Shown: one piece after another, positions 11,519 through 24,000 of the stretch
Numbering within the stretch: the stretch's first letter is position 1
Layout of the letters: each line of letters starts with the position of its first letter
Origin: Dechloromonas aromatica (nom. nud.)
Lineage (GTDB): Bacteria; Pseudomonadota; Gammaproteobacteria; Burkholderiales; Rhodocyclaceae
NCBI GenBank assembly: GCA_004555545.1
Contig: SFHR01000032.1
Span: forward strand, 16,161 to 40,160
Direction: 5' to 3'
Length of the DNA stretch: 24,000 bases
Translations under genes and position numbers: made by a program
The notes under the pieces: generated by a model
Told to the model about the DNA's origin: nothing
The model's input: only the letters and a program-made list of their open reading frames with translations
Database searches by the model: none

Positions 11519-14131
11519 ATGTTAGACAAATCTTATAATCCAGACGATATTGAAAAAAAATATTACTCCTTTTGGGAAAATAACGGCTTTTTTGATGCCG
11601 GTAAAGATTTACAAAAAGCCAAAAATCCAGAACAAAATTTCTGCATTATGCTCCCACCGCCAAATGTCACCGGAACGCTTCATATGGGACACGGCTTCAA
11701 TCAAACGCTGATGGATTCGTTAATTCGCTATCACCGTATGAAAGGCGATAACACGCTTTGGCAGCCCGGCACCGATCACGCTGGAATAGCCACGCAAATT
11801 GTGGTGGAACGTCAGTTGGATGCTCAAAAGATATCTCGGCACGACTTGGGACGCGAAAAATTCGTAGAAAAAGTTTGGAAATGGAAAAAACTTTCCGGAG
11901 GCACGATTACTCAACAAATGCGACGTTTAGGCACTTCTCCGGATTGGAAACGCGAACGCTTCACTATGGACGAAGGACTTTCCAAAGCAGTAGTGGAAAC
12001 GTTTGTGCGTTTATACAATGATGGTTTGATTTATCGCGGCAAAAAATTAGTAAATTGGGATCCAAAATTACAAACGGCAGTATCAGATTTAGAAGTCGTG
12101 CAAAATGAAGAAAATGGCAATTTATGGCATATCCGCTATGATTTGGCTGATAACTCCGGAGATTTCTTGATTGTAGCAACCACGCGTCCGGAAACGTTGT
12201 TCGGAGATACCGCCGTGATGGTGCATCCAGACGACGAGCGTTATCAAAAATATATAGGCAAACAAATCAAATTACCGCTGACAAATCGCACCATTCCGAT
12301 TATTGCCGATGCTTATGTAGATAAAGAATTTGGAACCGGATGCGTAAAAGTTACACCGGCTCACGATTTCAATGACTACGAAGTTGGCAAACGCCATAAT
12401 TTGCCATTGATTTCGGTTTTAACTTTGGAAGCTAAAATGTCCGCCGAACCTGAAGCTTGTGTTCCCGAAAATCTACACGGCTTGGATAGATTAGTCGCCA
12501 GAAAAAAAGTAGTCCAAGAATTACAAAATCTCGGCTTGTTAGTCAAAATTGAAGAGCATAAGCATAAAATTCCACGCGGCGACCGGACCGATGAAATCAT
12601 TGAGCCGATGCTTACAAATCAATGGTTTGTGGCTATGTCTAAACCGACGGCAAAAAATGGAATTTCCATAACGCAACGAGCTTTGGACGCCGTCAAAAAC
12701 GGAGAAGTGAAATTTTTCCCCGAGAATTGGGTAAATATTTATAACCAGTGGCTCAATAATATTCAAGATTGGTGTATTTCTCGTCAGCTTTGGTGGGGAC
12801 ACCAAATTCCAGCGTGGTATGGCGAGGGCGATATTTTAGTAGTCGCTCATAACGAAAATGAAGCCAAACAAATCGCCGCCGAAAAATTTAATTATCACGG
12901 CGAATTAGTTCGCGATAATGATGTTTTAGATACTTGGTTTTCGTCGGCTTTATGGACGTTTTCCACTTTGGATTGGACTGGCGATGAAAATTTAGATTTG
13001 CAAAATCCTATGTTACAGCAATATTTGCCGTCTTCGGTGCTGATGACCGGTTTTGATATTATCTTTTTCTGGGTCGCCAGAATGATCATTATGACTTTGT
13101 ATTTAACCGACAAAGTGCCGTTTAAACACGTTTATGTTCACGGTTTGATACGCGATCAAGATGGTCAGAAAATGTCAAAATCAAAAGGCAATGTGATTGA
13201 TCCGATTGATATCATAGACGGAATTGGTTTGGAAAAACTATTGGAAAAGCGGACTTTTGGTTTGATGAATCCAAAGCAAAAAGATGCGATTATCAAAAAA
13301 ACTAAAAAAGATTTTCCAAATGGATTTACCGCAATTGGCACGGACGCTTTACGTTTTACTTTTTTGAGTTTAGCCTCGCCCGGACGCGATATAAAATATG
13401 ATTTTGCACGTGGAGAAGGTTATAGAAGTTTTTGTAATAAACTTTGGAATGCAACGCGTTTTGTGTTAATGAATATTTCTGATGAAGATAAGCAGAAATT
13501 AAACAATTTCCACGAGAATAATCCAAAAATTTTTGAACAAATCTCGTGGAAAGAACACTGGATTTTGTCGGCTTTACAAAATACGATAGCCGAAATTCAT
13601 AAAAATTTTGCAAATTATCGTTTTGATTATATAGCCAAAACTTTTTATGAATTTGTTTGGAATGAGTTTTGTGATTGGTATGTAGAAATTGCCAAAACCA
13701 CTCTGAACGAGCAGATCAACGAATCCGAAAAATTAAAAGTGCGTTTTGTGTTAGTTTATGTTTTGGAAAATATTTTGCGTTTGGCACATCCTTTGATTCC
13801 GTTTATCAGCGAAGAGTTATGGCAAAATGTAGCCGAAATTATTAACGCCAAAAAAACGCCATCAATTATGTTGGCAAAATTTCCGGATTTTGACGCTACG
13901 CTGGTGGATTCAAACGCCGAGCAACAAATCTCAAATTTGAAAACTTTGGTTTCGGCAAGTCGTAATTTACGCACGGAAATGCAAATTTCTCCGTCCGTAA
14001 AAACTCCATTGGTGATAGAAATTGCCAAAAATAATTCGCAAAAACTCGTGGAAATTCAGGAATTTATGCCATATTTGAAATCGTTATCAAAATTATCTGA
14101 TGTGCAAATTGTTGTTAAAAGTGGAAATTGA
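11519..14131 (+). CDS. valS: valine--tRNA ligase, main frame, ending prematurely before the C-terminal coiled coil
   Basis: 870-aa ORF. HIGH-type motif ([13 protein letters not shown]), KMSKS, and editing and anticodon-binding regions. The C-terminal coiled coil is missing from this frame. Confidence 0.92.
13507..13552. repeat. CCACGAG palindromic element, full copy 9, in-frame inside valS
   Basis: TTTCCACGAGAATAATCCAAAAATTTTTGAACAAATCTCGTGGAAA (cores 13510-13516 and 13543-13549), translated as [16 protein letters not shown]. Confidence 0.9.
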
Positions 14132-14330
14132 TGTAGCGGCTGAAAAATCTCGGCTACAAAAAGAAATAGCCGCTTTACAAAAACAAATCAGCATTTGCCA
14201 AAATAAATTAAATAACAAAAATTTTGTTGATAAAGCACCAGCAGCTGTGGTTGAACAAGAAAATCAACGCCTGAAAAATTTTGTAGAAAACCAAACAAAA
14301 TTACAACAACAACTTAATAAACTAAACTAA
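14100..14330 (+). CDS. valS: ValRS C-terminal coiled-coil domain in the +1 frame relative to valS (split or frameshifted)
   Basis: Translation [54 protein letters not shown] matches the conserved ValRS C-terminal tRNA-binding coiled coil. This frame is open from 14079; the main frame stops at 14129-14131. Confidence 0.8.
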
Positions 14331-14345
14331 ACTAAACTAAACTAA
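14321..14345. repeat. 5-bp tandem repeat ACTAA x5
   Basis: Read directly; contains the stop codon of the ValRS C-terminal fragment. Confidence 0.85.
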
Positions 14346-14423
14346 AATAAAATAAATACAAATATTTAATACAAATATTTGATATAAATACAAATACAAA
14401 AATACAAAGAAAGGAACAACCAT

Positions 14424-14843
14424 ATGAGTAGCGTTTTCAATGTATTCAATATCTCGTCAAGTGCAATGACTGCTCAATCAATTCGTTTGAATACCGTTGC
14501 TTCTAATTTGGCAAACGTTGATAGTATTATTGACGAAACCGGACAACCTTACCGCTCCAAGCAAGTGGTATTCCAAGCCGTGCCGACAACAACCGATACG
14601 ACAAATGTTTCGCGTGGAGTTCGCGTCAATCAGATTGTGGAATCAGCCGCACCGCCGCGTTTGGTTTATGAGCCAAATAATCCAGCCGCCAACGCCGACG
14701 GTTATGTTGAATATCCAAACGTAAATGTAGTGGAGGAAATGACCAATATGATTTCGTCCTCGCGTTCTTATCAAAGTAATGTGGAAGTTATGAATACGGC
14801 TAAAAACTTGGTCACCAGCACTTTACAAATAGGTCAAGCATAA
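14424..14843 (+). CDS. flgC: flagellar basal-body rod protein FlgC
   Basis: 139 aa. Clear FlgC signature at both ends (SAMTAQSIRLNTVASNLANVDS ... YVEYPNVNVVEEMTNMISSSRSYQSNVEVMNTAK). Confidence 0.88.
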   Translation: MSSVFNVFNISSSAMTAQSIRLNTVASNLANVDSIIDETGQPYRSKQVVFQAVPTTTDTTNVSRGVRVNQIVESAAPPRLVYEPNNPAANADGYVEYPNVNVVEEMTNMISSSRSYQSNVEVMNTAKNLVTSTLQIGQA

Positions 14844-14871
14844 CAATAACAACTTAACTTAACAAAAAATA

Positions 14872-14917
14872 TTTTCCACGAGATTTTCAAAAGATTTTTT
14901 AGATTTCTCGTGGAAAA
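14872..14917. repeat. CCACGAG palindromic element, full copy 10
   Basis: Cores at 14876-14882 and 14907-14913. Lies between flgC and ilvE. Confidence 0.9.
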
Positions 14918-14930
14918 ATAAAGTAAAAAT

Positions 14931-14970
14931 ATCAAAAAATATCAAAAAATATCACAAAATATCAAAAAAT
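14931..14970. repeat. 10-bp tandem repeat ATCAAAAAAT x4 (A-tracts phased at 10 bp)
   Basis: Read directly, 24 nt upstream of the ilvE ATG. Confidence 0.85.
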
Positions 14971-22897: not shown

Positions 22898-22911
22898 AAA
22901 ATACTATAAAT

Positions 22912-23562
22912 TTACGGCAATCTTCCGGCTTCTATCATTTTATATTTGAGTTGATAAGGCGTAATCCAAATTACTTTATCATCAAAATTTTGGGTTTCTG
23001 CTTGGCTAACAAAATAAGTATCATTATTACTATTTTCTTGCTCATTACTATTAGCAGAATTTTTGCCACGTGCATTATGTAAAACAATCACGGAAGCCAC
23101 TTCTATGGCTAATTTATCATTTTTATTATTACTATCTGCCAAAATGTCTGCTAATGATTTTCTTACACTATCATTACCTTCACCGGTTGCCAAATTAAAA
23201 CTACAAAGTTCATCATCTTCCAAAGGTTTAGAAAACGCCACATTTACATAATAACTAATTGCATTTCCAAAGCGATCTGTTTTTGGAACTCCTAATAAAA
23301 CGCTTGGCAAAATTCCGTGCGTCAAATTACAATTTTCGCTTTGCAAATTATTTTCATTTTCTGCCGGACAAGGCAATCTCCCGTGAGTAATCGCAAAGCC
23401 GTATAAACTTTCTCTAATAGTATTTAATAAAATTTCGTCTTGTTGAGTTTTGTTATTTTTATAAATTGAATTTACTAATATCAAACTACTTCCTAACAAC
23501 AAGGAAATAACGCTTAAACTAATAACCAATTCTATTAAAGAAAAACCATTTTTTTTATACAT
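22912..23562 (-). CDS. prepilin-type N-terminal cleavage/methylation domain protein (type IV minor pilin or pseudopilin-like)
   Basis: MYKKNG|FSLIELVISLSVISLLL: class III signal with G-1, F+1 and E+5. 216 aa, with Cys pair in GRLPCPAENENNLQSENC. Confidence 0.8.
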   Translation of the reverse strand: MYKKNGFSLIELVISLSVISLLLGSSLILVNSIYKNNKTQQDEILLNTIRESLYGFAITHGRLPCPAENENNLQSENCNLTHGILPSVLLGVPKTDRFGNAISYYVNVAFSKPLEDDELCSFNLATGEGNDSVRKSLADILADSNNKNDKLAIEVASVIVLHNARGKNSANSNEQENSNNDTYFVSQAETQNFDDKVIWITPYQLKYKMIEAGRLP

Positions 23563-23563
23563 A

Positions 23564-23635
23564 TTTTTATTTTACTTTTTATTTTACTTTTTATTTTACT
23601 TTTTATTTTACTTTTTATTTTACTTTTTATTTTAC
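23564..23635. repeat. 12-bp tandem repeat TTTTTATTTTAC x6
   Basis: A C every 12 nt (23575 ... 23635), starting 2 nt upstream of the prepilin start codon. Confidence 0.9.
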
Positions 23636-23645
23636 TTCGCAACAA

Positions 23646-23692
23646 TTTTCCACGAGATTTCCAAAAAATTTTTTAGATTTCTCGTGGAAAAA
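23646..23692. repeat. CCACGAG palindromic element, full copy 13
   Basis: Cores at 23650-23656 and 23681-23687. Lies between the TonB-like gene stop and the prepilin gene. Confidence 0.9.
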
Positions 23693-23711
23693 TTGTATTT
23701 ATAAATAATAT

Positions 23712-24000
23712 TTAATTCAAACTAAATCTAACCGGCAAAATAAATTCTCGTGGAGCATTTTCTTCCAAACCTTTTATACTTTTTACTGCTTTTAACGCAG
23801 CATTATCTAAAATTTCATAACCGCTGGAATTTTCAACTCTGCTGATTATCACATTACCATTGTTATCTAAAAAAATTCTGACTTCTACCACGCCTTGAAT
23901 ATTATTTTGAATTGCTTCCAAAGGATAAAACAAATGCTGTTTTTTGAGTTTATTAAAATGCTTTGTAATTTGCTTTTGCCAATTATTTTTTGTAATTTCT
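23712..24000 (-). CDS. TonB C-terminal-domain protein (5' end outside the window)
   Basis: YPLEAIQNNIQGVVEVRIFLDNNGNVIISRVENSSGYEILDNAALKAVK fits the TonB_C fold signature. The frame stays open upstream of the ORF-track TTG start, to the window edge. Confidence 0.75.
   Translation of the reverse strand, partial: EITKNNWQKQITKHFNKLKKQHLFYPLEAIQNNIQGVVEVRIFLDNNGNVIISRVENSSGYEILDNAALKAVKSIKGLEENAPREFILPVRFSLN

Follow-up and report, generated by a model that had tools for sequence, protein, structure and literature searches.

What process has written a short word about once per kb into the 24-kb stretch of contig SFHR01000032.1 analysed here (the window, taken at its full length), and what reads it? 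The word consists of TTTCCACGAGA plus an A/T tract and occurs both as inverted pairs and as single copies. A sequence-only reading of the window had likened its arrangement to the DNA uptake sequences (DUS) of Neisseriaceae and the uptake signal sequences (USS) of Pasteurellaceae. Judged by its sequence properties, the best single explanation would be that this genome carries an uptake-signal-like word belonging to a new uptake-sequence-like system, a reading that we hold tentatively and rate appreciably below an even chance.

Besides the window (35% G+C), the data comprised six strain contigs with 98-99.9% identity to it, extensions of the window flanks, three contigs from sister species (L013, L014 and L015, with 84-91% protein identity) and 120 non-redundant contigs of the same species (L020-L139; 411 kb, 35.2% G+C) that were retrieved from metagenomes with a scan for the pair pattern and are 99% identical to the window in overlaps. 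Sample codes suggest that the metagenomes holding these contigs are from pig gut. HflX and ValRS have their nearest named homologues in Azonexus and Dechloromonas (Rhodocyclaceae) at 55-65% identity, which together with the low G+C content indicates that the host is an isolated low-GC betaproteobacterial lineage.

The core TTCCACGAGA occurs 30 times exactly in the window, compared with 0.04 expected from dinucleotide shuffles, and 35 times with at most one mismatch, compared with 0.97 expected; the earlier count of about 33 cores resolves into 30 exact and 5 one-mismatch copies. The 411 kb contain 511 exact cores (1.24 per kb), for which a third-order Markov model predicts fewer than one. The claim that copies are mostly paired also holds: 24 of the 30 exact copies in the window form 12 inverted pairs, and in the 411 kb about 80% of the copies are paired, about 20% are single and about 13% lie inside genes. 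Coding DNA is poorer in singles (0.17 per kb against 0.8 per kb in intergenic DNA), and pairs are almost all intergenic. The core is also sharp, with 481 perfect 11-mers against 66 one-mismatch variants in the 411 kb, the flanking T being the mismatched site in 30 of the latter. It is non-palindromic and present in both orientations in the window (17 exact cores on the plus strand and 13 on the minus strand, singles lying on both), without a replication-type strand skew, and a polar word of the Chi or KOPS type was rejected on these grounds. Two of the one-mismatch matches, at 644 and 12716, have no partner arm and are probably due to chance, since about one such match is expected. A literature search for the word returned primers only, a scan of viral contigs gave no matches, the pair-pattern scan of genome contigs gave only chance hairpins, in unrelated genomes, among the matches listed, and Rfam reported no family for the element in the window, with only two tRNAs reaching the gathering score.

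The paired element follows the pattern T-TTCCAC[GAGAwwTCTC]A5-6T5-6[GAGAwwTCTC]GTGGAA-A, a near-palindrome of 42-44 bp with outer flanks rich in A on its 5' side and in T on its 3' side. Of about 400 paired arms in the 411 kb, 333 have a spacer of 22 or 23 nt, and the remaining spacers (34, 44-46 or 54-56 nt) correspond to extra 11-nt A/T units. The half unit extends over about 30 nt, T-TTCCACGAGA-WWT followed by 4-5 variable bases, an A-run/T-run and a final G. Single copies inside genes have the consensus tTTTCCACGAGAtTT....aAtttTTTTTg, with core and central A/T tract in the same register as in the pairs, and their information content drops to zero where a second arm would lie. They are therefore not the bare 10-17-mers described earlier, as about 30 nt are common to them and the paired element. 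From these alignments, each strand of a pair carries one complete unit of about 30 nt, and the two units have a self-complementary A5T5 in common, an arrangement which explains the fixed spacer.

Single copies account for 105 of the 511 exact cores, of which 62 lie within genes, 40 in spacers and 3 at the edge of a gene. They represent a discrete class, as the number of mismatches in the would-be partner is bimodal and no continuum of decay leads from pairs to singles. All six single sites named by the sequence-only reading are present in the window, four with an exact core and two with one mismatch. The exact ones are half elements in ilvE (15599-15637, minus strand, core 15627-15636, SRGK), in the gene for a Lys-rich protein (16731-16762, plus strand, core 16732-16741, antisense, NLVEK), in the lineage-specific N-terminal extension of hflX (18735-18766, plus strand, core 18736-18745, FPREI) and in a HAD hydrolase gene (21070-21101, plus strand, core 21071-21080, FPRE). 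Their best partner scores (5-6 of 10) equal background, so these arms do stand alone, without a recognisable partner, as had been proposed. The one-mismatch cores, in valS (14044-14053, minus strand, KLVE), where the copy adjoins a 6-aa lineage-specific insertion, and near the C-terminus of the TonB-like gene (23746-23755, minus strand, PREF), are fixed in seven strains, and the valS copy is found in a sister species as well. Overlooked earlier were an intergenic single half element with an exact core at 8542 and an A/T tract but without second arm (8541-8570, plus strand) and a copy in obg at 6122. In addition, one inverted pair is read in frame within valS (13508-13551, translated into 17 residues), in a hypervariable loop of ValRS. 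The obg copy is not single: its decayed partner, ACTCGTGGAT, lies 34 nt away, so that the whole element (6122-6175) is translated inside Obg, as 19 residues that lie within an insertion relative to E. coli Obg.

Genic singles show an even spread over the length of the genes (relative positions 0.02-0.96) and occur in all six frames, which extends the earlier remark on several reading frames, with NLVE(N/K) encoded in 33 of the 62. Tripeptides encoded by the word outnumber their reversed forms 2- to 10-fold (LVE 92 vs EVL 34; SWK 22 vs KWS 2; STR 24 vs RTS 5; FHE 19 vs EHF 5), and such an enrichment has also been reported for genomes with DUS or USS (PMC2817400). Comparison with solved homologues showed no indel at the single sites of IlvE (SRGK vs NRGK; Burkholderia IlvE), the HAD hydrolase (3fvv), P5CR (FFKNNFENLVEK vs LESGNLRELFIK) and ArgRS (KKNQKILVEF vs KKQESFLLEY, directly before the HIGH motif), nor at two of the three single sites of UvrA. 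The absence of indels at these six sites indicates that the word was written into the genes by substitution. With 44 genic singles antisense and 18 sense, a role of the singles at the RNA level was ruled out. TTTTCCACG looks like a DnaA box, and the loop TTGAAA together with its flank like a sigma-70 promoter; both resemblances were judged coincidental, because GAGA is as conserved as TTCCAC and genic singles occur in both orientations. Two of the genes with single copies have additional peculiarities: UvrA (L017, 13570-16578; 1002 aa) contains, besides its three single half elements, a low-complexity KNQ-rich insertion, and the N-terminal extension of hflX (28 residues, 18660-18745), which holds the FPREI copy, is missing from other betaproteobacteria.

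The copies are old. Within a 15-kb shared region, 6 pairs and 7 singles are all fixed in seven strains, which frequently differ by spacer indels of 8-36 nt, and single-nucleotide differences affect 1 in 255 element positions as compared with 1.6% of spacer positions, the number of such differences in the seven strains being too small to compare arms, loops and spacers. The same core is found in the three sister species, where elements form islands of identity within otherwise diverged spacers. Thus, the pair in the divergent purD/valS spacer (11414-11455) is identical in L015 and the rest of that spacer is unalignable, the one-mismatch half element between the histidine kinase gene and hflX (18622-18650, minus strand) stays single in three species, and in all three HflX ends with DFPREI* inside the element, which covers the end of hflX in the window (19936-19977) and supplies the stop codon. 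Fixation in strains together with orthology across species points to old, maintained sites and not to a recent burst or an active miniature inverted-repeat transposable element (MITE). No MITE-type insertion polymorphism was found among the seven strains over the 15 kb, the sole presence/absence event being a 700-nt module described below. The word is missing from a 43% GC genome (L140) that encodes a 37%-identical homologue of the pilin-like protein of the window.

Pairs favour gene 3' ends. A pair is present in 86% of the convergent, 53% of the tandem and 39% of the divergent intergenic regions; one region alone holds two pairs, the others at most one. The remaining pairs of the window lie directly past tRNA-Leu (230-272, a full element), between bamD and holA (1252-1294), between the convergent holA and miaA (2397-2438), at 3484-3547 with a 44-nt spacer that comprises two additional 11-nt A/T-tract units, between a flagellar rod gene and ilvE (14874-14915), between the convergent ilvE and Lys-rich genes (16167-16209), between the pilin-like and TonB-like genes (23648-23689, with one arm changed from G to T in two strains) and at the two borders of the 700-nt module. 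Hairpins formed by the pairs are predicted at -17 to -29 kcal/mol. As a consensus scan found no other terminators in the spacers, the pairs are the obvious terminator candidates, and from their sequence and position they may serve as the bidirectional terminators of this genome.

Elements also mark rearrangement breakpoints. In the window, a 700-nt module consisting of an Xre-type HTH gene and a Sel1-repeat gene (7112-7897) is bounded by two elements, one with a 35-nt spacer (7112-7166), which has obg or TerD on one side and HTH-Sel1 on the other depending on the strain, and one at the second border (7856-7897). Writing E for the element, the window has the order obg-E-HTH-Sel1-E-SIS, one contig has obg-E-SIS and another TerD-E-HTH-Sel1-E-SIS. 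The module is missing from L016 (15734-15880), where a single hybrid element takes its place, and in L017 (12620-12770) it is joined to TerD-UvrA and not to obg. The neighbours of valS in L015 (1376-2123, 4996-5089) also differ from those in the window, with elements or single arms at each synteny break.

An uptake-like origin is suggested by the combination of density, a sharp non-palindromic core, an A/T tract, both orientations and genic depletion with frame-biased substitution, and further by tripeptide enrichment, dyad pairs at 3' ends and sharing among sister species, and these features match published properties of DUS and USS (10.1101/2025.10.24.684340; PMC2817400). To date, only the uptake sequences of Neisseria and Haemophilus relatives are known to show such a distribution. 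The DUS/USS comparison made in the sequence-only reading is thus supported in part: density, sharp core, substitution into genes, six frames, pairs at 3' ends and occurrence in sister species speak for it, whereas the pilin that it cited is not credible as a receptor and a search of about 460 kb, perhaps a fifth of the genome, revealed no competence or type IV pilus genes. Mechanistically, a DNA-binding component of an uptake machine, or of another DNA-transfer machine, would prefer the unit of about 30 bp in double-stranded DNA, and alleles matching it better would be transmitted and recombined more often, a form of molecular drive by which the word would accumulate wherever selection tolerates it. 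Inside genes it would be written by substitution, mostly in the cheap NLVE frame, and behind genes two opposed units sharing A5T5 would produce a near-palindrome placed like a bidirectional terminator.

Uptake signals of the Hin type in Pasteurellaceae combine a 9-bp core, AAGTGCGGT, with two phased A/T tracts, about 29-32 bp in all. In layout and statistics the present word behaves most like this type: a core is followed on one side by A/T tracts in fixed register, copies occur about once per kb in both orientations, genic copies use preferred frames and enrich tripeptides, and inverted pairs lie behind genes (PMC2817400; 10.1101/2025.10.24.684340). In contrast, the sequence is unrelated, the host is a betaproteobacterium near Rhodocyclaceae, 65% of the copies in H. 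influenzae lie inside genes compared with about 13% here (where about 20% are single), and the fixed 22-23 nt spacer, polar asymmetry, pair dominance and extremely sharp core set the present word apart. The DUS of Neisseriaceae measure 10-12 nt, for example ATGCCGTCTGAA, and are bound by the receptor ComP. Like them, the present word has a betaproteobacterial host, about one copy per kb with the majority outside genes, frequent inverted pairs (which in DUS act as terminators) and a distribution common to related species, whereas TTTCCACGAGA is unrelated to GCCGTCTGAA or any dialect, the nearest named relatives of the host are the two Rhodocyclaceae genera mentioned above, the unit has about 30 nt with an A/T tract and a conserved spacer between paired copies, and no ComP-like basic minor pilin was found in the 460 kb. 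An unrelated sequence in a host outside both families makes the word a member of neither the Neisseriaceae DUS nor the Pasteurellaceae USS.

Several observations weigh against an uptake sequence. The first concerns the machinery. The roughly 460 kb covered yielded no competence or type IV pilus genes, a weak test given that they amount to perhaps a fifth of the genome. Regular expressions for T2SSE ATPases, secretins, ComEA and prepilins, likewise a weak test, gave no matches in 363 open reading frames, nor did Pfam reveal any such machinery in the window or its flanks. The only pilin-like gene (22912-23562, minus strand, 216 aa), which had been cited in support of the uptake reading, is an orphan encoding an acidic mature protein (isoelectric point 4.9), while its homologue in L140, the genome that lacks the word, sits in an MshE/T2SSF pilus operon from which the window gene is detached; on charge and genomic context it was rejected as a ComP-like receptor. 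The word bears no similarity to the DUS and USS that are known, and its perfect copies outnumber those with one mismatch by a far larger factor than in Haemophilus or Neisseria. The second group of observations concerns the pairs, which make up about 80% of the copies and have a quantised spacer. Their halves differ systematically, AGA-AA-TCT in one and AGA-TT-TCC in the other (anti-symmetry z = -9.8, -7.1 and -6.1), and the next inner position covaries (z = +11.7). This difference gives the element a polarity, which follows the direction of transcription weakly (36:18). Neither a fixed spacer nor an internal asymmetry would be predicted from two independently accumulating DUS or from point mutation, and on their sequence such uniform, polar and quantised pairs look like a structured unit spread by copying, as in families of repetitive extragenic palindromic (REP) sequences or MITEs. 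Finally, whole elements are found inside valS and obg, and a simple consensus terminator scan calls none of the pairs.

We therefore weighed the alternative of a REP/MITE-like structured palindrome, copies of which enter, or formerly entered, intergenic DNA, where they would by now have become the standard bidirectional terminator. We regard this as unlikely but deserving serious attention. The arms would stay constant because a cognate enzyme or binding protein recognises the hairpin, and coding singles would be by-products, for instance of short ectopic conversions from more than 1000 element copies onto look-alike sequences. Such an origin would account for the fixed, quantised spacer with its conserved inner sequence, for a conserved polar asymmetry that leaves the hairpin with A.A or T.T mismatches and one G.U or C.A position while one inner pair covaries, for the orientation bias relative to transcription, for the full elements inserted in frame in valS and obg, for elements bordering strain rearrangements, the 700-nt presence/absence module and the synteny breaks of L015, and for the presence of nearly exactly one element per intergenic region, at 3' ends, in DNA where the consensus scan found no other canonical terminators. 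REP and REPIN sequences, mobilised by RAYT, are likewise short imperfect intergenic palindromes at gene 3' ends, with conserved stems, more variable loops and conserved mismatches that give polarity, and they are associated with rearrangements. However, there are 62 coding singles in 362 kb, a discrete class without decaying partners, and since these sit without indels on conserved protein segments, insertion cannot be their source. The seven strains show no insertion polymorphism over 15 kb despite many small indels elsewhere, and orthologous copies with perfect arms persist across species. Moreover, the element lacks the GTAG/CTAC foot of REPs and is present as one copy per spacer and not in clusters, and neither a transposase nor a RAYT was seen, though no systematic search for either was made; half elements written into genes by substitution are a further difference from REPs. 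Rickettsia palindromic elements resemble the copies in valS and obg in that whole palindromes are translated in frame in essential genes, yet they measure 100-150 bp and arise by insertion, while most genic copies here are half units without indel. It is possible that both processes act together, with pairs that spread as units and with half units driven into genes by the same recognition process.

Equally unlikely, in our estimate, is that the word belongs to an abundant sequence-specific DNA-binding protein or a repair bias unrelated to uptake. It could be read by a nucleoid or termination factor, mark self-DNA for a recombination or defence system, or be a HIP1-like iterated motif under biased repair. 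Action at the DNA level, in both orientations relative to transcription and on singles unable to form a hairpin, would suit such a protein, as would the fixed register between the core and an intrinsically bent A5T5 tract, the extreme conservation of the 11-mer and the restriction of the word to this lineage, with its absence from L140; several DNA methyltransferase genes also lie nearby. Against this, we know of no nucleoid or termination protein whose sites reach one per kb and are also written into genes in six frames, and the Chi/KOPS-type strand skew is lacking. The hexamer CACGAG, a BssSI-type site, has a normal frequency outside the word; this speaks against any connection with restriction-modification and led us to reject the restriction-site idea. 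Cyanobacterial HIP1 (GCGATCGC) is likewise a lineage-specific, very dense word in genes and spacers, but motifs of this type are short palindromes (HIP1 itself being a perfect one of 8 bp) without an extended asymmetric unit of 30 nt or an inverted-pair architecture. Chance matches arising from codon usage and amino-acid constraints in an AT-rich genome, for which one may cite cores that fall on conserved residues, as in IlvE (RGK) and ahead of the HIGH motif in ArgRS (LVE), and an A/T tract encodable by common N/K/F/I codons, have a practically negligible probability and are refuted by the counts, with 6 exact singles in 24 kb against 0.04 expected, 105 singles in 411 kb against fewer than one, and reversed tripeptides being 2-10 times rarer.

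What, then, would an uptake-like word in this lineage amount to? Uptake sequences have been known for about forty years, and from two bacterial families only (10.1101/2025.10.24.684340). We consider it close to an even bet, though still on the lower side, that the present word represents either a third DNA-uptake-sequence system, evolved independently of those in Neisseriaceae and Pasteurellaceae and the first to be known elsewhere, in an uncultured low-GC gut betaproteobacterium, with a 30-bp core plus A/T tract as its unit and nearly every terminator composed of two units with one A5T5, or, if competence machinery is lacking, a new molecular drive that has no connection with uptake and imposes a 30-nt word on essential genes. 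If an uptake system is involved, biased uptake and the genome-wide drive resulting from it would evolve repeatedly, the layout of core plus A/T tract would be a convergent solution, a new receptor would await discovery, and a gut lineage would be naturally transformable, which would be relevant to gene flow in animal microbiomes. If the organism is not competent, the result would arguably be more surprising, as some other process would impose a 30-nt word on IlvE, ProC, ArgRS and UvrA.

Some further observations concern the neighbourhood of the elements. The two tRNA genes of the window, tRNA-Leu(CAG) at 119-203 and tRNA-Phe(GAA) at 20103-20178, have a pair after and before them, respectively, and the first 296 nt of the window recur in L043 at 92% identity. 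In L096 (2610-3551), a gene that by eye resembles a plasmid replication initiator adjoins an element, so that extrachromosomal DNA may also carry the word. Spacers are rich in short AT-rich tandem repeats whose copy number varies between strains, for example the 12-mer TTTTATTTTACT, (TTTTTA)n and AACAAAAC (window 23560-23640, 18495-18560 and 11240-11400; L001 17640-17700). Convergent with the orphan pilin gene, positions 21620-22897 encode a 425-aa protein without Pfam or NCBIfam match, which has a signal peptide, a TPR-like N-terminal part and a beta-barrel-looking C-terminal part ending in YWQYYFEK. RecN (L016, 4479-6284) is unusually long (601 aa) and has no core. At 14112-14119 in valS, 71 nt present in all other strains are missing from the window, between the short direct repeats TTGTTGAT and GGTTGATGTT; the loss shifts the frame and truncates the protein at 14131, so that the source genome has either a valS pseudogene or a fault in its assembly here. 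Finally, hexamers with GCGC or GGCC, as well as others such as ACCAGG and AGGACC, are almost missing from the 411 kb, AGCGCA occurring 0 times compared with a median of 119 for hexamers of the same composition, which suggests strong avoidance of restriction sites.

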